From Candidatus Woesearchaeota archaeon (GTDB lineage Archaea; Nanobdellota; Nanobdellia; SCGC-AAA011-G17; UBA489): a DNA stretch of 64,000 bases. The notes beneath the pieces are model-generated. The model had not been told where the DNA came from and made no database searches. It saw only the letters and a program-made list of their open reading frames with translations. A program made the translations under genes and the position numbers. The stretch covers positions 81,345 to 145,344 of the forward strand of contig CAYFJW010000001.1 in the NCBI GenBank assembly GCA_964343875.1, read 5' to 3'. This document shows, piece after piece, positions 20 to 62,297 of this stretch; position 1 is the stretch's first letter, and every line of letters begins with the position of its first letter.

Positions 20-421
20 ATGAAAGCCCTAAATGCAAACATTCCAAAGTCATTGCCCCATAGAGCAAAGGTTATGGCATGTGACAATTCAGGAGCAAAG
101 ATAATTAGGATAATCTCTGTTAAAGGTTCAAAGACTGTGAAGGGCCGTAAACCTACTGCAAGGGTAGGAGACCTAGTGCTAGCATCAGTAATCAAAGGAA
201 CACCGGCGATGAGGAAACAAGTTGTTCCAGCAATAATCGTTAGACAAAAAATGCCTTACAAAAGACCAGACGGAACAAGAGTTTGTTTCGAAAGTAATGC
301 GGCAGTAATACTCAAGGATGAAAAAGGAACTCCAAAAGGAACAATATTCAAGGGACCTATCGCAAAGGAGGCAGCTACAAGATGGACAAGAATCTCAAAA
401 GTAGCTAGCATTGTGCTATAA
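20..421 (+). CDS. rpl14: 50S ribosomal protein uL14
   Basis: Translation MKALNANIPKSLPHRAKVMACDNSGAK... matches the uL14 family. It is the first gene of the spc-like ribosomal cluster. Confidence 0.9.
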   Translation: MKALNANIPKSLPHRAKVMACDNSGAKIIRIISVKGSKTVKGRKPTARVGDLVLASVIKGTPAMRKQVVPAIIVRQKMPYKRPDGTRVCFESNAAVILKDEKGTPKGTIFKGPIAKEAATRWTRISKVASIVL

Positions 422-422
422 G

Positions 423-830
423 ATGAAACAAGATTTTTCAACTGAATGGAGAGCAAGTAAAAACAGAAGAAAACAGAGAAAATTCATAGCTAATGCCCCA
501 TTACATCTTAGAGGAAGTTTCCTCAATACACAGTTATCAAAAACACTTTCAAAAAAACATGGGATCAGATCTATAAGGATAAGAAAAGGAGACAAAGTAA
601 AAATAACAACCGGACAACACAAGGGAAAGTCAGGCGCAATTGCAAAAGTTGATGTAAAAAATACAAAGGTCAACATTGAAACACTATTCACACTAAAAAG
701 AGACGGTTCAAAATCGTTTTATCCCATCCACCCATCAAATCTTCAAATACAAGAATTGAATATGGATGATAGAAGGAGAAACAAGAAAATAGAACCAACA
801 AAAACTAAGGAAGTTAAAGATAAAAAATGA
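423..830 (+). CDS. rpl24: 50S ribosomal protein uL24 (KOW domain)
   Basis: KOW-type motif GDKVKITTGQHKGKSGAIAKV. It sits between uL14 and eS4. The ATG at 423 is preferred over the TTG at 411 given in the ORF track. Confidence 0.85.
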   Translation: MKQDFSTEWRASKNRRKQRKFIANAPLHLRGSFLNTQLSKTLSKKHGIRSIRIRKGDKVKITTGQHKGKSGAIAKVDVKNTKVNIETLFTLKRDGSKSFYPIHPSNLQIQELNMDDRRRNKKIEPTKTKEVKDKK

Positions 831-1504
831 GTCATCAAAAACGAATAAGTTCATCAAAGAGAACACTTTTGGCTAGAAAGGGAACCACATTTGTCTCTTG
901 CCAGTCACCAGGACCTCATAGAAAGGCCGAATCCATGCCCCTGAACGTCGTAATCAGAGATATACTAAATTTAGTAGAAACCGGAAGAGAAGTAAAGAAA
1001 TCACTTAACGCGGGATTAATATTAGTAAACGGTGTTGCAAGAACAGACCACAGGTTCCCAATTGGTTTCCTTGATGAAATATCATTCACAACCTCAAAAG
1101 ATAGATACATCGTTGTATACAACACACTGGGCAAACTAGAATTAAAGAAACAAGAAAAAGACCATCCAAAGGCAATGAAGGTCATTGGTAAAAAAACATT
1201 GCAAAAAGGAAAAACCCAAGTTAACCTTCACACCGGGAAGAACATTTTGCTAGACAAAACAAAAGACTACACTGTTGGCGATAGTCTCATTGTTGATAAG
1301 AACAAAGTTGTAAAACATTTGAAATTTGAAAAAGGAGCAAAGGTATTTCTAACTTCAGGCAAACACGTTGGACACAATGGAGTTATTGAAGAAATAAAGA
1401 AAAACGAATCATGGTCGCAACCTAAAACAATTTTGGTTAAAACAAAGAAAGGTACATTTGAAACACTAAGAGAATGTGCATACGTTGTTGACGGAGAATT
1501 ATAA
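827..1504 (+). CDS. rps4e: 30S ribosomal protein eS4
   Basis: Length (225 aa), S4-like N-terminal region plus KOW region, and conserved operon position. Confidence 0.85.
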   Translation: MSHQKRISSSKRTLLARKGTTFVSCQSPGPHRKAESMPLNVVIRDILNLVETGREVKKSLNAGLILVNGVARTDHRFPIGFLDEISFTTSKDRYIVVYNTLGKLELKKQEKDHPKAMKVIGKKTLQKGKTQVNLHTGKNILLDKTKDYTVGDSLIVDKNKVVKHLKFEKGAKVFLTSGKHVGHNGVIEEIKKNESWSQPKTILVKTKKGTFETLRECAYVVDGEL

Positions 1505-3219: not shown

Positions 3220-3788
3220 AAGAATTACTAAAAATAAGGAACACTGCAAAGGCAAAGAAGCCGACTTTCCTTAAACAGGATGCTCACCGCCTAGCAAAAC
3301 TAAGTGAAAACTGGAGACAACCAAAAGGGCAACATTCCAAACTAAGAAAGAAACTTAGAAGCTACAGAAGGCATCCTTCAATGGGATTTTCATCCCCTAA
3401 GGCTGTAAGGGGCCTAACCAGAGAAGGTCATGAATTAATCATAATCAACAATATTTCAGAACTAGAGGGAGTAAAAACTCCAATTGTGATTGGAGGATCT
3501 GTTGGCGACAGAAAAAGACTTGAAATCATAAAGAAATGTAATGAAAACAAAATTGAAGTCCTCAACATAAAGGATGTTAATGCCTACGTAAAAAATATTG
3601 AAGATGCAATGAAGAAAAAGAAAGAAGAAATAAAGAAAAGACATGATAAGAGAGCAAAGAAAGAAGCAGAAAAGAAGAAAGAAAATGAATCCAAAGAGAA
3701 AAAAGATGATAAAAAAGAAGTAGACACAGAAAAAGAAAAGAAGAAAACAGAAGAAGAAAAGAAGAAAATATTGGAGAAGAAGAATTAG
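3216..3788 (+). CDS. rpl32e: 50S ribosomal protein eL32 with a ~70-aa Lys/Glu-rich C-terminal extension
   Basis: Core KLRKKLRSYRRHPSMGFSSPKAVRGL is eL32-like. The tail KKKKEEIKKRHDKRAKKEAEKKKENESKEKKDD... is low-complexity. The ATG at 3216 overlaps the uL6 stop. Confidence 0.8.
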   Translation: MKELLKIRNTAKAKKPTFLKQDAHRLAKLSENWRQPKGQHSKLRKKLRSYRRHPSMGFSSPKAVRGLTREGHELIIINNISELEGVKTPIVIGGSVGDRKRLEIIKKCNENKIEVLNIKDVNAYVKNIEDAMKKKKEEIKKRHDKRAKKEAEKKKENESKEKKDDKKEVDTEKEKKKTEEEKKKILEKKN

Positions 3789-3794
3789 TAAAAA

Positions 3795-4244
3795 ATGAAC
3801 TTATCAAATAAGAAAAGAATTGCATCAAATGTTATGAAGTGTGGTGCAAACAAAGTAAAGTTCGACATTACTAGCCTGCAATCCATAAAAGAAGCAATCA
3901 CAAAGTCAGATATTCGTGCTTTAGTAAAAGACAAAGTAATAAAGAAAAAACCGGACACTGGCGTTTCACGTTCAAGAGCAAGACAAATACTAAAACAAAA
4001 AAGGAAAGGAAGAAGGACCGGACCAGGAAGAAAGAGCGGAACTCACAAAGCAAGATTGCCACAAAAGAAAGAATGGATGAACAAAATAAGAGCAATCAGA
4101 GACCTACTAAAAACATTAAGACAAAAAGAAGTAATCGACGCAAGGGTTTACAGGCTACTCTATAGAAAGGCAAAAGGTGGATACTTCAGAAGCAGAAGAC
4201 ACATCAAATTATACATCGAGGAGCACAATCTAGCTAAAAAATGA
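3795..4244 (+). CDS. rpl19e: 50S ribosomal protein eL19
   Basis: MNLSNKKRIASNVMKCGANKVKFD... is typical of eL19. Confidence 0.88.
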   Translation: MNLSNKKRIASNVMKCGANKVKFDITSLQSIKEAITKSDIRALVKDKVIKKKPDTGVSRSRARQILKQKRKGRRTGPGRKSGTHKARLPQKKEWMNKIRAIRDLLKTLRQKEVIDARVYRLLYRKAKGGYFRSRRHIKLYIEEHNLAKK

Positions 4245-4750
4245 AAAAATTAGTCAAGAGAGGACTTCCCTACAAAAGGAAGCTTGAAGGAAGAACGGAC
4301 TACTTAGCAAGGCTAAACCTACTAAAATCAGGTAAACCAAGACTAGTTGTAAGAAGATCATTAAGAAACATAATAATACAGTTTGTAGAATTCAAACCAG
4401 ATGGAGATAAAATAGTTTCTTCAACATCCTCCAAAGAATTAACAAAAACATACAACTTAAAGGGATCCCTAAAGAATATCCCAGCTACATACCTGACAGG
4501 TCTACTTGCAGGTAAGAAAGCGGCGAAATTAAAGATCACAGAAGTTGTTCCGGATTTAGGAATTAGAAAACCTCACACTGGCGGAGCAGTTTTTGCAGCA
4601 TTAAAAGGAATAATTGATTCAGGAATAAAGATTTCACACAAAGCAGACTCAGATGAAAAATCTGTGTTCCCTTCCGAAGAAAGATTAAAGGGGGATCATG
4701 TTAAAGTAAAAAACGATTATGAGGGAATAAAAGCCAAGATAACAAAATGA
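4241..4750 (+). CDS. rpl18: 50S ribosomal protein uL18
   Basis: KRKLEGRTDYLARLNLLKSGKPRLVVRRSLRNI motif of uL18. Confidence 0.88.
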   Translation: MKKLVKRGLPYKRKLEGRTDYLARLNLLKSGKPRLVVRRSLRNIIIQFVEFKPDGDKIVSSTSSKELTKTYNLKGSLKNIPATYLTGLLAGKKAAKLKITEVVPDLGIRKPHTGGAVFAALKGIIDSGIKISHKADSDEKSVFPSEERLKGDHVKVKNDYEGIKAKITK

Positions 4751-6487: not shown

Positions 6488-7894
6488 ATGGGTTTTTTTG
6501 AAAAAGTAGCGAATATCTTCCCCGAAGTTAGAGGTCCTTCTGAAAAGAGGCTTGGGTTTAAGACTAAACTTAAGTGGACACTCCTAATTTTGGTCGCATT
6601 CTTTGTTTTATCGGTTATACCATTATATGGTCTAGGACAAAATGCTCTTTCTCAATTCGAATCACTATCTATTATCTTGGGAGCTAGTTTTGGTTCAATT
6701 ATGTCCCTTGGTATTGGACCAATCGTAACAGCATCCATCGTACTTCAATTATTAACAGGTTCAGGTATTCTAAAAATAGATACAACGACCCCAGAAGGTA
6801 AATCCTTTTTCCAAGGTTTACAAAAAGTAATGACAATTTTCTTCATTGTATTTGAAGCCTTTATCTACGTATTTCTGGGTGGTTTAGCACCGGCTGCAGA
6901 ACTACTAGGAACTTCAGCCTATCCTTTAATGCAATTAATGTTAGTATTCCAATTAATTTTAGGTGGAATGATGGTACTATATATGGACCAAGTTATCAAC
7001 AAATATGGGTTCGGTTCAGGTGTATCGCTCTTCATCGCAGCAGGTGTATCCAGCTCAATATTTGTAAGGGCCTTCTCTCCATTAAATAGTGTTGGAGCCT
7101 GGGCATTTGGTTCAGGACAAGCTCCGATTGGACAAGTATGGGTATTCTTCCAGTCATTAATGAATAGGAACCCACTAGGAGCAGGACTTGCATTAGCCGC
7201 AATACTTGCAACAATATTTGTATTTGCGTTCTCAGTTTACGCACAAGCAATGAAAATAGAGATACCTCTATCTTTCGGACGTGTTAGAGGACATGGAATA
7301 CGTTGGCCACTAAAATTCCTATACACTTCCAACATTCCAGTTATTTTGACAGCAGCATTGCTAGCAAATATCCAATTGTGGGCGAGATTGTTAGAAAGCT
7401 GGGGTAAGCCTATATTAGGCACCTTTGTTGGTAACACTCCTGCATCAGGGTTTGTATTATGGGTATTCCCACCAAATATTGTACAGGGGATTATTACAAG
7501 TTCAATTGCCCCGATTGATTTTGCACACGCAGCGGTTTACATGTTATTAATGATAGGCGGAGCAGTATTATTTTCCATTTTCTGGGTTCAAACTTCAGGG
7601 ATGGATGCTGCAGCACAAGCAAAGCAGATGATGTCTTCAGGACTACAAATCCCTGGATTTAGAAGAGACCCAAGAGTACTTGAGGCAATCTTAAATAGGT
7701 ATATTCCTTCCTTAACAATACTTGGAGGTATTGCAATTGGTGTCCTTGCCGCATCGGCAGACTTAATGGGCGCACTTGCAAACGGTACAGGTATATTGCT
7801 GGCAGTTATGATCATCTACAAGTTGTATGAAGAAGTTGCACAACAACACATGATGGACATGCATCCTGCATTAAGAAAGATGATGGAAAAATAA
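6488..7894 (+). CDS. secY: Protein translocase subunit SecY
   Basis: A 468-aa polytopic membrane protein immediately after uL15. SecY-like plug and TM2 region. Confidence 0.9.
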   Translation: MGFFEKVANIFPEVRGPSEKRLGFKTKLKWTLLILVAFFVLSVIPLYGLGQNALSQFESLSIILGASFGSIMSLGIGPIVTASIVLQLLTGSGILKIDTTTPEGKSFFQGLQKVMTIFFIVFEAFIYVFLGGLAPAAELLGTSAYPLMQLMLVFQLILGGMMVLYMDQVINKYGFGSGVSLFIAAGVSSSIFVRAFSPLNSVGAWAFGSGQAPIGQVWVFFQSLMNRNPLGAGLALAAILATIFVFAFSVYAQAMKIEIPLSFGRVRGHGIRWPLKFLYTSNIPVILTAALLANIQLWARLLESWGKPILGTFVGNTPASGFVLWVFPPNIVQGIITSSIAPIDFAHAAVYMLLMIGGAVLFSIFWVQTSGMDAAAQAKQMMSSGLQIPGFRRDPRVLEAILNRYIPSLTILGGIAIGVLAASADLMGALANGTGILLAVMIIYKLYEEVAQQHMMDMHPALRKMMEK

Positions 7895-26802: not shown

Positions 26803-26876
26803 TGGACCGGACGGGATTTGAACCCGCCGCATTACGGCTGCCAGCCGTACATTCTACCAGACTGAATTACCGGCCC
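26803..26876 (-). tRNA. tRNA-Ala (anticodon GGC)
   Basis: GGGCCGG acceptor with G3:U70, anticodon loop CTGGCAG, T-arm GGTTCAAATCC, discriminator A. Its 5' end overlaps the last codons of the upstream LAGLIDADG ORF. Confidence 0.8.
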
Positions 26877-27631
26877 AGTTTTCTTACCTTGTAGGGTCTA
26901 ACTAGGCTTAAAAACTTGTTGACTTCCCTTTCCCTTATTCTCAAAACAAAGAGGTCTTTCCATTCAGGATTTTTTCTTTTTTTACACCAAACTATCGAGG
27001 AAATGCCCAGCTCTTCTAAAATGACTTTCATCTGATAGACTAATTCTTTTGAGGTAGTATAATAAAATGCCCTTAATCTATTGTTTGAGGTGCTCAAGCA
27101 ACCATCTGTATCAAAAAACCCCCTTAAAAAACCAATCTTAAACATTCTATTAAGTGATACTCCTCTAAGTTGGCATGTATTATGTTTATTTCTACAATCA
27201 TACTTAAGATAATTATTGAAAAAATAAAATAACTCTTTATTAATTGCCCTAATCCTATACTTCACCTGGCCTTTTCTGTTTGTTTCCTTCCAGATTCTCC
27301 ACGACCTTCCAAAATAATTCTCGAATAATTTTTTCACGTAAATTACATAATTTTCCACATTCCCAAAATGTATAGTCGTGAGGTATTGTCCATTGGGTCG
27401 ATAATGATATTGACTTCCATCTCCTGCAAAAATGCCCACTATCTCCCCCTCAATCTCGGAGAAACTTATTTTATGTGTTGGTTTTTTGTATTTTTTACCG
27501 TTAACTTTTCGATAATAATAGTAGATTGTAGACTTTGCAAGTCCCGTTTTGGCCACTATCTTGCTTATTGAGAGATTGTTTTTTAAATCAAGAATCAAGC
27601 CTACTCTGATGGATGAGTCTAATCTTTTCAT
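26867..27631 (-). CDS. Free-standing double-motif LAGLIDADG homing-endonuclease-like protein with an N-terminal HTH
   Basis: Two LAGLIDADG motifs (IVGIFAGDGS and GFLRGFFDTDGC). N-terminal HTH LSISKIVAKTGLAKSTIYYYY. Not inside an intron or intein. Confidence 0.75.
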   Translation of the reverse strand: MKRLDSSIRVGLILDLKNNLSISKIVAKTGLAKSTIYYYYRKVNGKKYKKPTHKISFSEIEGEIVGIFAGDGSQYHYRPNGQYLTTIHFGNVENYVIYVKKLFENYFGRSWRIWKETNRKGQVKYRIRAINKELFYFFNNYLKYDCRNKHNTCQLRGVSLNRMFKIGFLRGFFDTDGCLSTSNNRLRAFYYTTSKELVYQMKVILEELGISSIVWCKKRKNPEWKDLFVLRIREREVNKFLSLVRPYKVRKLGR

Positions 27632-27689
27632 AAAAAATTAATATTCTATGGGTTAAAAAAGAAATACATCCAATGCAGTAAGTGAGAAA

Positions 27690-29225
27690 CTATAACTTTC
27701 CAAAACTAAGTTTACCACTAATAAGGCTTTTTATTTTAGTATTTAGCTCGTCTATAGCAACTCTTTTCTGTTTCTCTGAATCTCTATCCCTCAATGTAAC
27801 AGTATTATCTTTCAACGTCTGATGATCAACAGTAACACAATATGCAGTCCCAGATTCAGCAGCACGCAAATACCTTTTACCAATACTCCCCGACTGATCA
27901 TATTCAACTATAAATTCATCCTCTAACAACTTCTTAATTTCTTTAGACTTCTCAGGCATCCCCTCTTTCTTCATCAAAGGGAATATGGCAACATCAACCG
28001 GAGCCAACTGATAAGGCAACCTAAACATGGTCTTTCCCTCTTCCTTACCAACCTTAGTATAAAATATATCCAACAAAGCAAACACAGGCCTATCTATGCC
28101 AAATGCTATCTCCAAAACATGGGGAGTAATATCTTTATTATTTGCATCTTTTGCGGTCAAGTTCTGTTTTGAAAACTTAGAGTGCTGTAACAAATCATAA
28201 TCAGTTCTATCATGTATTCCACAAACTTCGGTCCATCCAAAACTATTCAAATTAATCTCAATATCCCATGCATCATCTGCATAGAATGCCTTTTCATCAT
28301 GATGGTGTTGTCTTATCCTAATTCTATCCTCAGGCACACCCAGATTAACAAACTGCTTATATGCCAACCAAACACACCACGCATAAGCTTTGGACTTAAA
28401 GAATTTCTTTTTAATACAGTCTACAACACTAACCATGGAATGTTTCTTGTCGTCTTTCTGACTCTTATAATCCCATATGGGCAACCTATCTTTCTTAACT
28501 TCATCAAACTTATCCCAATTATCTTTTTCACTTGGATCAATGAACAATTGCCCTTCGGCCTGCGTAAACTCTCTACTTCTCAACAAACCCTGCCTTGGGC
28601 TTATCTCGTCCCTAAATGCCTTCCCAATTTGAAAAACGCCTAACGGCAACCTTCTCCTAAAGAACTCATAATATCTCTTAAATGGAATATATGTAACAGT
28701 CGCAGTCTCAGGTCTTAATGAAGATTCAATACCACCTGCAACAGTCTTCATCATCAAACTTTGACTTTTGATCTTTTTCTTCAATTCTCCCTTGCAAGAG
28801 GGGCATCTTATCTTATTCCCACTAATAAAGTCTAACAACTCTGGATCAGAAAAAGCATCGGCACAAACATCATGACTTTCCTCGATTAACTTATCAGCCC
28901 TAAAAACAGATTTACACTTACTACACTCTATAGTCTTATCATTAAAAGTATCTAAATGACCTGAAGCCTTCCAAACAACATCAGGTAAAACGATCGGACA
29001 TTCAACTTCCCAGAAACCATTGCTCTGAAAAGTTCTTTTTACAATCTTCTCAACTTTCTCCTTCAACAACTTACCAAGCGGCCCATAAGAATAGAATCCG
29101 GCCACGCCCCCATAAATCTCTGGAAAAGGACCCCAAACAAAGCCCTTGCTCTGCATAAATGAAGTCAGATCCATTAAGAACTTCTCTCTCTTTTTGACAT
29201 CTACCTTAACTGGTTTGCTAGGCAT
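27690..29225 (-). CDS. glyS: Glycyl-tRNA synthetase (archaeal/eukaryotic class-II type)
   Basis: GFVWGPFPEIYGGVAGFYSYGPLGKLLK N-terminal signature. Class-II motifs and a C-terminal anticodon-binding domain (SIGKRYLRAAESGTAYCVTVDHQTLKDNTVTLRDRD). Confidence 0.8.
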   Translation of the reverse strand: MPSKPVKVDVKKREKFLMDLTSFMQSKGFVWGPFPEIYGGVAGFYSYGPLGKLLKEKVEKIVKRTFQSNGFWEVECPIVLPDVVWKASGHLDTFNDKTIECSKCKSVFRADKLIEESHDVCADAFSDPELLDFISGNKIRCPSCKGELKKKIKSQSLMMKTVAGGIESSLRPETATVTYIPFKRYYEFFRRRLPLGVFQIGKAFRDEISPRQGLLRSREFTQAEGQLFIDPSEKDNWDKFDEVKKDRLPIWDYKSQKDDKKHSMVSVVDCIKKKFFKSKAYAWCVWLAYKQFVNLGVPEDRIRIRQHHHDEKAFYADDAWDIEINLNSFGWTEVCGIHDRTDYDLLQHSKFSKQNLTAKDANNKDITPHVLEIAFGIDRPVFALLDIFYTKVGKEEGKTMFRLPYQLAPVDVAIFPLMKKEGMPEKSKEIKKLLEDEFIVEYDQSGSIGKRYLRAAESGTAYCVTVDHQTLKDNTVTLRDRDSEKQKRVAIDELNTKIKSLISGKLSFGKL

Positions 29226-34040: not shown

Positions 34041-34114
34041 TGAGGCTGCACGGATTTGAACCGTGATCCCCAGGTCCCAAACCTGGAAGGCTAACCAAGT
34101 TACCCCACAGCCTC
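34041..34114 (-). tRNA. tRNA-Pro (anticodon TGG)
   Basis: GAGGCTG acceptor fully paired with CAGCCTC, anticodon stem CCAGG/CCTGG, loop TTTGGGA, T-arm GGTTCAAATCC, discriminator A. Confidence 0.8.
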
Positions 34115-34129
34115 TTTGGGAGCACCAGG

Positions 34130-34831
34130 TTATTTCTTTGATTCCTCCTTCTTATCTTCTTTTTTCTCTTCAGCTTTGTCTTCTGTCTTAGCTTCAGTAG
34201 CCTCTCCTTCCGTAGTCGGAGCAGCTTCTCCAGGAGGTTTCTCTTCCTTAGCGCCCTTTGCTTTCTTCTTAGCGAAAGCCTTATCCATCTCTAATTGAAC
34301 AGCATCCAACTGCTCCTTTAAAGCTTTGGCTTTTTCAGGGCCCAATTCAGTATTTCCTGACTTAATAGTATCATCAAACTTCCCTTTTTCTAGCAACTCA
34401 TTGAATGCATGTGAATTAACACCTTCAACCAACACACCCAAACTATTGCATGTGCCTGCAACAGCTTTTATTGCGGCCTTAATATCTGTTGTAAACAAAC
34501 TTTCAGATTTCATTTTAGCAACCTTCAACAACTGCTCAATTGAAATGTTTCCAACTTTCTTCTTCTCGGGTTCGCCACTGCCTTTCTGTATTTTCAACTC
34601 ACTCTTAATTAGTTCAGCGGCAGGCGGACTTTTTACAGTAATCTCATAAGTCTTGTCCTTCTCATTTACATCTAATTCAACAGGAACTTTTAATCCCTTA
34701 TAAGTTTCAGTCTTATCATTAATATCTTTAAGGATGCCCTGCATATCCATCTTCAATGGACCCAAAGTCTGTGCCATCGCAGGAGATGTACTAGCTTTCC
34801 CGCCCTCAACCATCAATTTTATTTTTACCAT
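34130..34831 (-). CDS. rpl11: 50S ribosomal protein uL11 with a long Lys/Glu/Ala-rich C-terminal extension
   Basis: N-terminal VEGGKASTSPAMAQTLGPLKMDMQGILKDIN is uL11-like. A ~70-aa tail carries EKAKALKEQ...KKEDKKEESKK. Confidence 0.8.
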   Translation of the reverse strand: MVKIKLMVEGGKASTSPAMAQTLGPLKMDMQGILKDINDKTETYKGLKVPVELDVNEKDKTYEITVKSPPAAELIKSELKIQKGSGEPEKKKVGNISIEQLLKVAKMKSESLFTTDIKAAIKAVAGTCNSLGVLVEGVNSHAFNELLEKGKFDDTIKSGNTELGPEKAKALKEQLDAVQLEMDKAFAKKKAKGAKEEKPPGEAAPTTEGEATEAKTEDKAEEKKEDKKEESKK

Positions 34832-61430: not shown

Positions 61431-61504
61431 AGGCACTGGCAGGATTCGAACCTGCGAAATAACCGCTCTGCAGGCGGTCCCCTTAACCACTTGGGCACAG
61501 TGCC
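61431..61504 (-). tRNA. tRNA-Cys (anticodon GCA)
   Basis: GGCACTG/CAGTGCC acceptor, anticodon stem ACCGC/GCGGT with loop CTGCAGA, T-arm GGTTCGAATCC, discriminator U73 (Cys identity element). Confidence 0.8.
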
Positions 61505-61506
61505 AG

Positions 61507-61604
61507 CGGACCCGATAGGATTTGAACCTACGACCTTCTGCTCACTTCTGAGTCCGAAGACTTAATAGAAGGCAGACGCTCTATCCAAACTGAGCTACGG
61601 GCCC
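61507..61604 (-). tRNA. tRNA-Arg (anticodon TCT) with a ~23-nt canonical-position intron
   Basis: GGGCCCG acceptor (G3:U70), D-arm GCTCAGTTTGGATAGAGC, anticodon stem TCTGC...GCAGA. The mature loop is CTTCTAA after removal of TTAAGTCTTCGGACTCAGAAGTG. The intron pairs with the anticodon in a BHB-like arrangement. The gene lies 2 nt from tRNA-Cys. Confidence 0.65.
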
Positions 61605-61634
61605 ATACACTTTAAACCCCCCAATTTTCTTTAT

Positions 61635-61642
61635 AAAATTAT
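61635..61642 (-). promoter_or_regulatory. TTTATAAA TATA-box about 30 nt upstream of the tandem tRNA-Arg/tRNA-Cys genes
   Basis: Archaeal TATA consensus at the expected distance from the tRNA 5' end at 61604. Confidence 0.4.
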
Positions 61643-61739
61643 CTACAAGCCATTTTTTAGAAGACCAAAGAACCCACGAGTTATTTGCTTTATCATAATA
61701 AGGCCTATTGAATTCCAATCCAACACCATAAAAAAGTTC

Positions 61740-62297
61740 CTAAAGACCAATTAAAAACTTAAATGATTTTTGTCTTAACTGAACAGCCTTCCTTCCGCGG
61801 TGTTTGTAGATATTTCCATCACTATCAAAGACGCCCTTCAAGAAAGCAATTTTTACAGATCTCCCTGCCCTAGATATCTCTGCAGGTACAACAATTTTTA
61901 CATATTTCTTCCCAATAGGGATTTGATACTTAAAATGGAGGAGTAAAGATAATGGCTTAGAGTAGGTAACTAGCGAGTAACATCCAGACCCATCATAGAT
62001 CTTTGCATCTAAATCAAACAAGCCCCTTACTAGTGCTCTACATTTCTTAGCGTCCTCCAAAGAACAAAAGGCAATTCTAACTGAGTAGATCAACCTACTT
62101 TCTTTTTTCCTAGCGACAATGCACCCATCTCCAAGTATTAGTCCAATAAAGTAGCCAACCTTTACAGGATCTAGAGCATCTAAAGAAACACTATTTCCCC
62201 CATTCACACAAATTTTCACTAAATTTAGTCCATCAAAAGAGAATGTTAAGTTCTTATACGACTTTAATTTCTCAAGAATGTTCTTTTCAACAATCAT
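61740..62297 (-). CDS. Free-standing double-motif LAGLIDADG homing-endonuclease-like protein
   Basis: Two LAGLIDADG motifs (YFIGLILGDGC and FLKGVFDSDGN). 185 aa. About 135 nt upstream of the tRNA pair, same strand. Confidence 0.75.
   Translation of the reverse strand: MIVEKNILEKLKSYKNLTFSFDGLNLVKICVNGGNSVSLDALDPVKVGYFIGLILGDGCIVARKKESRLIYSVRIAFCSLEDAKKCRALVRGLFDLDAKIYDGSGCYSLVTYSKPLSLLLHFKYQIPIGKKYVKIVVPAEISRAGRSVKIAFLKGVFDSDGNIYKHRGRKAVQLRQKSFKFLIGL

Follow-up and report, generated by a model that had tools for sequence, protein, structure and literature searches.

Candidate free-standing LAGLIDADG homing-endonuclease genes that run into tRNA genes in DPANN archaea, with an apparently decaying copy upstream of tRNA-Arg(TCT)

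I-DmoI and the other archaeal LAGLIDADG_3 endonucleases, which are encoded within inteins and rRNA introns, are monomers with a double-motif fold that keep the Asp residue at the end of each motif. Free-standing endonuclease genes of the GIY-YIG or HNH class are carried by T-even phages; they are optional, lie between conserved genes and presumably have one of these as their target. SegB, in the tRNA gene cluster of T4, is linked to tRNA genes. In intronless homing, such an optional gene between conserved genes targets the conserved neighbour in the genomes which do not have it (PMC6083498). F-CphI is a free-standing endonuclease which adjoins the cyanophage gene psbA, and self-cleavage is blocked by a group I intron that has no endonuclease of its own (PMC6083498). 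The present work concerns a LAGLIDADG gene at positions 61581-62297 (minus strand) of a stretch of 64,000 nucleotides (nt) from a Candidatus Woesearchaeota archaeon; this whole stretch is called the window below. The gene, located 5' of tRNA-Arg(TCT), appears to be a decaying copy of a free-standing homing-endonuclease gene (HEG). It belongs to a set of families which are probably specific for the 5' flanks of tRNA genes and which would replace the tRNA promoter with one of their own. The open-access full-text literature, PMC6125680 included, was searched for LAGLIDADG genes beside archaeal tRNA genes, and no such arrangement was found described. What sets these genes apart is that they reside in cellular archaea, belong to the LAGLIDADG class, are strictly placed 5' of a single tRNA isoacceptor for each family and are overprinted on the apparent promoter and the first nucleotides of the tRNA.

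The features of the locus, which involve an open reading frame (ORF), a putative B recognition element (BRE) and a bulge-helix-bulge (BHB) intron, are as follows:

61740..62297, minus strand: truncated LAGLIDADG ORF, 185 codons plus TAG, with domain 1 (GLILGDGC) and the start of domain 2 (GVFDSDGN)
61740..61742, minus strand: in-frame TAG nonsense codon, which breaks the second LAGLIDADG domain
61581..61739, minus strand: the frame read on beyond the in-frame TAG, with 52 codons (ELFYGVGLEFNRPYYDKANNSWVLWSSKKWLVDNFIKKIGGFKVYGPVAQFG) and a second TAG, coding for the end of domain 2
61629..61646, minus strand: GTAGATAATTTTATAAAG, a BRE/TATA-like element over the codons V-D-N-F-I-K, whose TTTA begins 33 nt upstream of tRNA-Arg +1
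61507..61604, minus strand: tRNA-Arg(TCT), complete, 98 nt including an intron (Rfam, 58.8 bits)
61543..61565, minus strand: 23-nt intron of tRNA-Arg at the canonical position 37/38, after A37, with a relaxed BHB fold
61431..61504, minus strand: tRNA-Cys(GCA), behind tRNA-Arg after a 2-nt spacer

An earlier note on this DNA had described a 185-amino-acid (aa) ORF with the motifs GLILGDGC and GVFDSDGN, 135 nt 5' of a tRNA-Arg(TCT) which carries an intron and is followed, 2 nt further on, by tRNA-Cys. These facts are correct: the ORF matches Pfam LAGLIDADG_3 (E = 1.5e-10), the distance from its stop to tRNA-Arg +1 is indeed 135 nt, and Rfam and the sequence agree on the intron and on tRNA-Cys. 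What escaped that account is that the gene is interrupted by a nonsense codon and has lost its N-terminus. On the read-through product, the Pfam match extends over residues 148-226 and spans the in-frame TAG, and the 135-nt "gap" is the remainder of the coding gene. When the frame is read through, it ends with the tail …PYYDKANNSWVLWSSKKWLVDNFIKKIGGFKVYGPVAQFG and a TAG at 61581-61583, 22 nt into tRNA-Arg; the last 24 nt of the continuation (61581-61604) are shared with the tRNA.

Both catalytic-type Asp residues are present in the window copy (D57 in GLILGDGC and D160 in GVFDSDGN). With the TAG at codon 186, domain 2 loses its final 52 residues, and the window copy therefore does not have two complete alpha-beta-beta-alpha-beta-beta-alpha domains in one polypeptide, which makes it a pseudogene-like member of its family. 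It also lacks about 50 residues of the N-terminal helix-turn-helix (HTH)-like domain, by comparison with homologues of 280-297 aa, and the 5' end of the cassette (its own TATA box and a conserved block described below) is lost. The in-frame TAG is a real nonsense mutation, because TAG serves this genome as a regular stop codon (15 of the 67 long ORFs of the window terminate with it) and because the sequence, nonsense codon included, is the same in four independent assemblies; recoding of TAG and a sequencing error are ruled out by these two observations, respectively. Low-level read-through of the codon may occur. Another Arg-family copy, at 3698-4658 of the metagenomic locus L003, has no recognisable start and no N-terminal 25 residues in frame, and may be a second decaying copy (by frameshift or 5' deletion).

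The window gene has 55 homologues (42-56% identity), called here the Arg family, in DPANN metagenome-assembled genomes labelled Pacearchaeota, Nanoarchaeota and Woesearchaeota. Their C-termini often read GPVAQLDRALAF, APVAQPG or ALVAQSG, which is the translated 5' end of a tRNA. Counting such tails with regular expressions is too crude as a statistic, and loci verified at the DNA level were used instead: ten for the Arg family (the window, L001-L008 and L040) and eight for the Ala family described below (the window and seven fetched loci). In 10/10 Arg-family loci there is no stop codon before the tRNA, and the frame closes inside tRNA-Arg(TCT), at a TAA or TAG triplet which begins at nt 8, 22, 30 or 37 of the tRNA. 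The Arg family appears to be confined to the 5' flank of the tRNA-Arg(TCT) genes of DPANN archaea.

The intact Arg-family cassette begins with a TATA box of its own, 23-24 nt before the ATG, which suggests that the HEG mRNA is leaderless. The ORF, of 280-295 codons, codes for an N-terminal HTH-like domain and an I-DmoI-like double LAGLIDADG core. A block, CCCTCTTATA, is conserved between the TATA box and the ATG; in L001, L002, L004, L005, L007, L008 and L040 (e.g., L004 3097-3160) the upstream DNA reads TTTATA(A/T)AG, 3-5 nt, (T)CCCTCTTATA, 5-7 nt, then TGT directly followed by ATGAAGTTCAC. The second and third codons of the HEG are also fixed as DNA (TTC in 7/8, compared to 0.18 gene-wide). 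The conservation of this upstream DNA may reflect an operator through which the gene is autoregulated, or else the left boundary of the mobile cassette. The HEG is free-standing, with its own TATA box, no host protein frame around it and a complete tRNA downstream (Rfam model positions 1-71). The completeness of this tRNA rules out that the HEG lies within a tRNA intron or a split tRNA.

The tRNA-linked gene differs from those of the I-DmoI type in being free-standing with its own promoter, outside any intron or intein, in coding for about 90 additional aa at the N-terminus, which form an HTH-like domain, and in having an ORF which ends inside a tRNA gene and holds the apparent promoter of the latter. 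The endonuclease genes of T-even phages, which the present genes resemble in genomic lifestyle, are phage-borne, end with stop codons of their own and do not extend into the adjacent genes, whereas the genes described here belong to the LAGLIDADG class, reside on a cellular archaeal chromosome and have an ORF that is written over the apparent promoter and the first nucleotides of a tRNA gene.

The element GTAGATAATTTTATAAAG is near-invariant as DNA across 10/10 Arg-family loci, where it covers codons of the last helix of the protein. These V-D-N-F-I-K codons are held at their synonymous sites as GTAGATAATTTTATAAA, 31-33 nt upstream of tRNA +1. Their use at the motif was compared with the gene-wide frequency in a codon alignment of the ten Arg-family genes:

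Val GTA: 9/10 at the motif, 0.28 gene-wide
Asp GAT: 9/9 at the motif, 0.81 gene-wide
Asn AAT: 8/8 at the motif, 0.80 gene-wide
Phe TTT: 10/10 at the motif, 0.82 gene-wide
Ile ATA: 10/10 at the motif, 0.36 gene-wide
Lys AAA: 9/9 at the motif, 0.72 gene-wide

Synonymous codons vary freely at other, equally conserved amino-acid columns. The frozen synonymous sites at V-D-N-F-I-K therefore point to a constraint which acts at the DNA level. The TTTA of the TATA-like box is located 31-33 nt from tRNA +1 in nine of the ten HEG+ Arg loci; in the HEG-less tRNA-Arg loci a TATA-like box is found at 30-34 nt in 29/36 cases, and the other tRNAs of the same genomes have it at similar positions. From this codon usage and spacing, the embedded motif is taken as the BRE/TATA promoter of tRNA-Arg, and in the window of tRNA-Cys too, in which case the last helix would be dual-coding. 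The tail residues encoded by the tRNA itself are disordered in an AlphaFold2 model (pLDDT below 50), which fits a run-on tail without a structural role. In the window copy, the promoter constraint covers only about the last 40 nt, so that the intact frame further upstream more likely reflects a recent nonsense mutation. The promoter upstream of tRNA-Arg in the locus L037, GATAATTTTATAAACAAAAC, is near-identical to the 3' end of the HEG of L007 and L008; no HEG protein remnant is detectable upstream of this tRNA-Arg, and the promoter is either the scar of a lost HEG or the result of convergence.

The window contains a second LAGLIDADG gene, also on the minus strand and next to a tRNA gene:

26867..27631, minus strand: Ala-family gene, apparently intact, 254 aa, HTH and double LAGLIDADG (GIFAGDGS, GFFDTDGC)
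26907..26914, minus strand: TTTTTAAG, a TATA-like box in this ORF (codons K-F-L-S), 38 nt upstream of tRNA-Ala +1
26803..26876, minus strand: tRNA-Ala(GGC), intronless, with G3:U70

This gene overlaps tRNA-Ala by 10 nt, its TAA stop being nt 8-10 of the tRNA. It has at least 110 family members, from Woesearchaeota, Diapherotrites and Nanoarchaeota, whose tails are also tRNA-derived (KLGR, RAGSSAR, KGPVVQW). The ORF overlaps tRNA-Ala by 10-51 nt in 8/8 loci, and all the partners are tRNA-Ala with G3:U70, with the anticodon GGC except for one CGC. TTTATAAA or TTTTTAAA is found at the equivalent K-F-(I/L)-(N/K) motif. The gene at 26867-27631 reads as an intact copy from a sister family, which is built in the same way but on tRNA-Ala. 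To the earlier note, the two LAGLIDADG proteins of the window appeared divergent and their adjacency to tRNA genes unlikely to be a coincidence. Both statements are borne out: pairwise BLASTP aligns only the motifs, which places the proteins in different families, and in many DPANN genomes each of the two families is linked to one particular tRNA. The ORF of L010 (306 aa, or 300 aa from the first ATG) stands for a third family and enters a tRNA read as Thr(CGT); VAQ or its first residues are present in 9/11 homologue tails.

A survey of 504 kb (80 metagenomic loci and the window), with 125 tRNAs, revealed eight LAGLIDADG ORFs. Five of these enter or abut the 5' end of a tRNA on the same strand (Ala, Arg twice, Leu-GAG and Cys). 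As for the other three, one overlaps the 3' end of a tRNA convergently, one is cut by the end of the contig and one is divergent from its tRNA.

Other arrangements of LAGLIDADG ORFs and tRNAs were also seen. A convergent geometry at the tRNA 3' end, different from that of the 5'-flank families, is found in L070 (ORF at 645-1406 on the plus strand, tRNA-Arg at 1388-1462 on the minus strand) and in L007 (ORF at 6937-7686 on the plus strand, tRNA-Met at 7688-7759 on the minus strand). In L009, a 336-aa LAGLIDADG ORF (205-1215, plus strand) is followed, at about 1220-1332, by an apparent tRNA whose D-loop is broken, after GGGGCCATAGCTCAGCCTGA, by some 30 inserted nt that may be a non-canonical intron; the remainder of the tRNA follows, and the Rfam match to this sequence is limited to model positions 6-65. 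The gene of glycyl-tRNA synthetase (GlyRS) adjoins the endonuclease gene in both families: it directly precedes the Ala-family gene in the window (26867-29225 for the pair) and in five other genomes (L002, L004, L005, L008 and L144) it and the Arg-family gene are divergent. The GlyRS of L007 and that of the window are of a different type, only about 40% identical to the others. The L007/L008 pair, whose HEG and GlyRS identities are discordant, was considered as a case of HEG transfer and rejected, the discordance apparently being due to this different type of GlyRS.

The intact members have the features of nucleases. The Asp which ends each motif is invariant at both motifs in a 53-sequence alignment of the Arg family; counted by regular expression, it is retained in 50/54, 92/96 and 11/11 members of the three families. 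The AlphaFold2 model of an intact member (pLDDT 92, pTM 0.88) has the two LAGLIDADG domains, and its top fold match is I-DmoI, with a target template-modelling (TM) score of 0.81-0.84 and a root-mean-square deviation of about 3 Å. Among the sequences with a solved structure, the closest are homing endonucleases from archaeal inteins and introns (7qsu, I-DmoI, I-Tsp061I and PI-PfuI). WhiA ranks 44th in the fold search, and WhiA and the maturases match far less well than the I-DmoI-type nucleases. The ratio of non-synonymous to synonymous divergence (dN/dS) between intact copies is 0.05-0.14, with dS saturated. The kept catalytic Asp, the I-DmoI-like predicted fold and the low dN/dS indicate that the intact members are working site-specific nucleases.

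The occurrence of the gene is sporadic. Scanning metagenomes with the 5' half of tRNA-Arg(TCT) gave 80 loci, 70 of which have at least 300 nt of upstream sequence, and the gene is present in only one of these 70 (L040). A sensitive hmmsearch on three-frame translations of the metagenomic loci detected no HEG remnants upstream of the HEG-less tRNA-Arg genes. One of them, L090, is a syntenic empty site: its divergent GlyRS start codon is separated from tRNA-Arg by 78 nt, with an ordinary TATA box 23 nt before tRNA +1, while the same GlyRS/tRNA-Arg slot is filled by the cassette in L002, L004 and L008. The tRNA exons of L090 match those of L002, but L090 is intronless whereas L002 has the HEG and a 17-nt intron. 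The gene is thus optional at a syntenic site, with L090 as an outgroup.

The sporadic occurrence, the syntenic empty site and the retention of the catalytic Asp make a family of tRNA-associated mobile endonuclease genes, one of the two options of the earlier note, the best reading. More precisely, we consider it somewhat probable that these are free-standing homing endonucleases specific for the 5' flanks of tRNA genes, which replace the tRNA promoter with their own. The enzyme would cut HEG-less tRNA-Arg loci, either at the junction between the promoter and the tRNA 5' end or in the anticodon loop, and double-strand-break repair would then copy the cassette into the cut locus. The inserted cassette would displace the resident tRNA promoter and supply the embedded one. 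After decay of the nuclease, the 3' end would stay, the tRNA depending on it for expression. A target at the promoter/tRNA junction would fit all the families, and the mobility of these genes may be ongoing.

Several observations weigh against this explanation. The GlyRS of L090 is only about 50% identical, which makes it a syntenic outgroup, so that the comparison demonstrates one insertion or deletion event, not recent homing. HEG identity tracks GlyRS identity within the L002/L004/L005/L006/L008 clade, and the comparison of the two identities gave no sign of recent horizontal transfer. A purely selfish endonuclease gene would seldom persist vertically for so long under purifying selection, which leaves room for a host function. 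The exons of the HEG+ L002 and of the HEG-less L090 are identical, although the HEG+ allele would have to escape self-cleavage. In the Ala family, the spacing of the box is looser (33-42 nt) and L143 does not have the motif. TATA-like strings easily arise from Phe, Ile, Lys and Asn codons at 36% G+C, and the synonymous-site test answers this objection for the Arg family only.

The question of self-cleavage is addressed by a target-specific variant of the same explanation, collaborative homing, which is conceivable but rather doubtful. The enzyme would cut the intronless tRNA at the intron site in the anticodon loop, and a short BHB intron without an endonuclease gene would protect its carrier; intron and upstream HEG, only about 37 bp apart, would be copied together. 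LAGLIDADG targets are often near-palindromes, and so is the DNA of the anticodon stem-loop. The Arg-family introns are 13-40 nt long, and the canonical 37/38 intron is present in 9/10 Arg-family loci compared to 33/79 HEG-less loci (Fisher p = 0.005), a value which is not corrected for relatedness, one clade having supplied most of the HEG+ loci. No intron is present at the empty site L090, whose exons are the same as those of L002, and the window, where the HEG has decayed and the intron is kept, has the state expected at the end of such a process. F-CphI and the psbA intron are a phage precedent (PMC6083498), which the Arg family resembles in having a HEG beside a gene with an endonuclease-less intron in nine of the ten loci. 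The Arg-family introns differ from that of psbA in being short archaeal BHB introns and not self-splicing group I introns, and the tRNA-Ala family is often without any intron. Indeed, four of the seven distinct HEG+ loci of the Ala family have an intronless tRNA, including that of the intact window copy (3/7 have an intron), L001 combines a HEG with an intronless tRNA-Arg, L031 has an intron without a HEG, and tRNA introns are common in these archaea anyway. The other option of the earlier note, degenerate nucleases co-opted for tRNA intron biology, is not supported: the intact members seem to be functional nucleases maintained by purifying selection, and roughly one in two tRNA-Ala partners is intronless, the one in the window included.

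The room left for a host function could be taken by a domesticated protein, no longer homing, which would control the transcription of the tRNA or of its own gene, or maintain the locus. This is unlikely, even if the low dN/dS (with its saturated dS), the agreement between HEG and host GlyRS divergence within the clade, the extra N-terminal HTH-like domain and the CCCTCTTATA block, which could be an operator, are all in line with it. LAGLIDADG folds have been domesticated before: WhiA, which is among the fold-search matches as is the bI3 maturase, combines a LAGLIDADG scaffold with an HTH-like domain. The HTH domain of WhiA is C-terminal, whereas that of the tRNA-linked family is N-terminal, and WhiA and the maturases have degenerate motifs, unlike the proteins described here, which keep the catalytic Asp in both motifs and are matched much better by I-DmoI-type nucleases. 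In addition, WhiA is a universal host gene, while the present gene occupies only 1/70 tRNA-Arg(TCT) loci, is absent from the syntenic relative L090 and is dispensable in the window organism, whose deleted and nonsense-interrupted copy is the same in four assemblies. Separate paralogous families, one per tRNA, also suit site-specific parasites better than a regulator. Chance adjacency in a compact, AT-rich genome, with tRNA-like tails resulting from ORF run-on, is very improbable. The genome is gene-dense, and its tRNA-Pro lies 15 nt behind a protein gene; yet proteins only 40-55% identical read into one isoacceptor on the same strand in all ten and all eight loci, the probability that a LAGLIDADG ORF runs into a tRNA 5' end by chance is roughly estimated at 1% per ORF compared to the five of eight in the survey, and it is precisely where the TATA-like box lies that the synonymous sites do not vary. 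Just as improbable is the remnant of an integrase-type element or virus which used the tRNA gene as its attachment (att) site. tRNA genes are classical integration sites of archaeal viruses and plasmids, but no att-like tRNA-derived repeat and no integrase were found around the window gene, the insert is a single gene at the 5' and not the 3' end of the tRNA, and no viral relative was found among 2.9 million viral contigs. Homing endonucleases specific for tRNA 5' flanks therefore remain our preferred explanation.

Rfam detects five tRNAs within the window. In the predicted fold of the tRNA-Arg intron, CUUCU pairs with AGAAG, and this helix is flanked by unpaired nucleotides, three of which bulge out 3' of it, and by a hairpin of the intron; the fold is of the archaeal BHB type, although relaxed and not strict. 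Archaeal BHB introns are removed by the tRNA splicing endonuclease. ARAGORN misses the tRNA-Arg of the window and labels the tRNA-Arg of L004 (3994-4081) "Pyl(CTA)" and the tRNA-Ala of L143 (1999-2090) "Leu(CAA)". Since this program misses or mislabels these intron-containing tRNAs, the overlap between HEG and tRNA would stay hidden in routine annotation. The tRNA-Cys of the window is presumably co-transcribed with tRNA-Arg; it is a lineage-specific neighbour, outside the endonuclease cassette. In L095, a distant LAGLIDADG ORF (28-837, minus strand) lies between tRNA-Arg(TCT) (908-983, minus strand) and tRNA-Cys(GCA) (38-112, minus strand) and reads through all of tRNA-Cys. The Arg-Cys spacer, of 2 nt in the window, therefore looks like another site which can be occupied or empty. 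L067 contains a partial duplicate of the tRNA 5' half (GCCCCGGTAGCTCAGCCTGGATAAAAGTGC) about 65 nt upstream of an intact tRNA-Arg(TCT). The tRNA-Pro(TGG) of the window (34041-34130) begins 15 nt past the stop of an upstream 233-aa ORF which, by eye, resembles ribosomal protein L11; there is no TATA-like box between the two, and tRNA-Pro may be co-transcribed with ribosomal-protein genes.

These results offer an explanation for the recurring "hypothetical" or "LAGLIDADG" genes of DPANN genomes, in which the overlap with a tRNA appears to be a conserved design and not an annotation error. The DNA for the last helix of the protein apparently serves an essential tRNA gene as its BRE/TATA box too, a clear natural case of dual coding by which a selfish gene could take over the expression of a host gene and so make its own 3' end indispensable. 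The genes also seem to provide several natural meganuclease families, presumably with one tRNA gene as the target of each (Ala, Arg, Thr, Leu, Cys), which would be useful scaffolds and a system open to experiment. If the link with introns is true, it would give a mechanism, at the DNA level and directly testable, for the spread of archaeal tRNA introns. If collaborative homing is true, promoter capture would make even a dead endonuclease gene impossible to delete.

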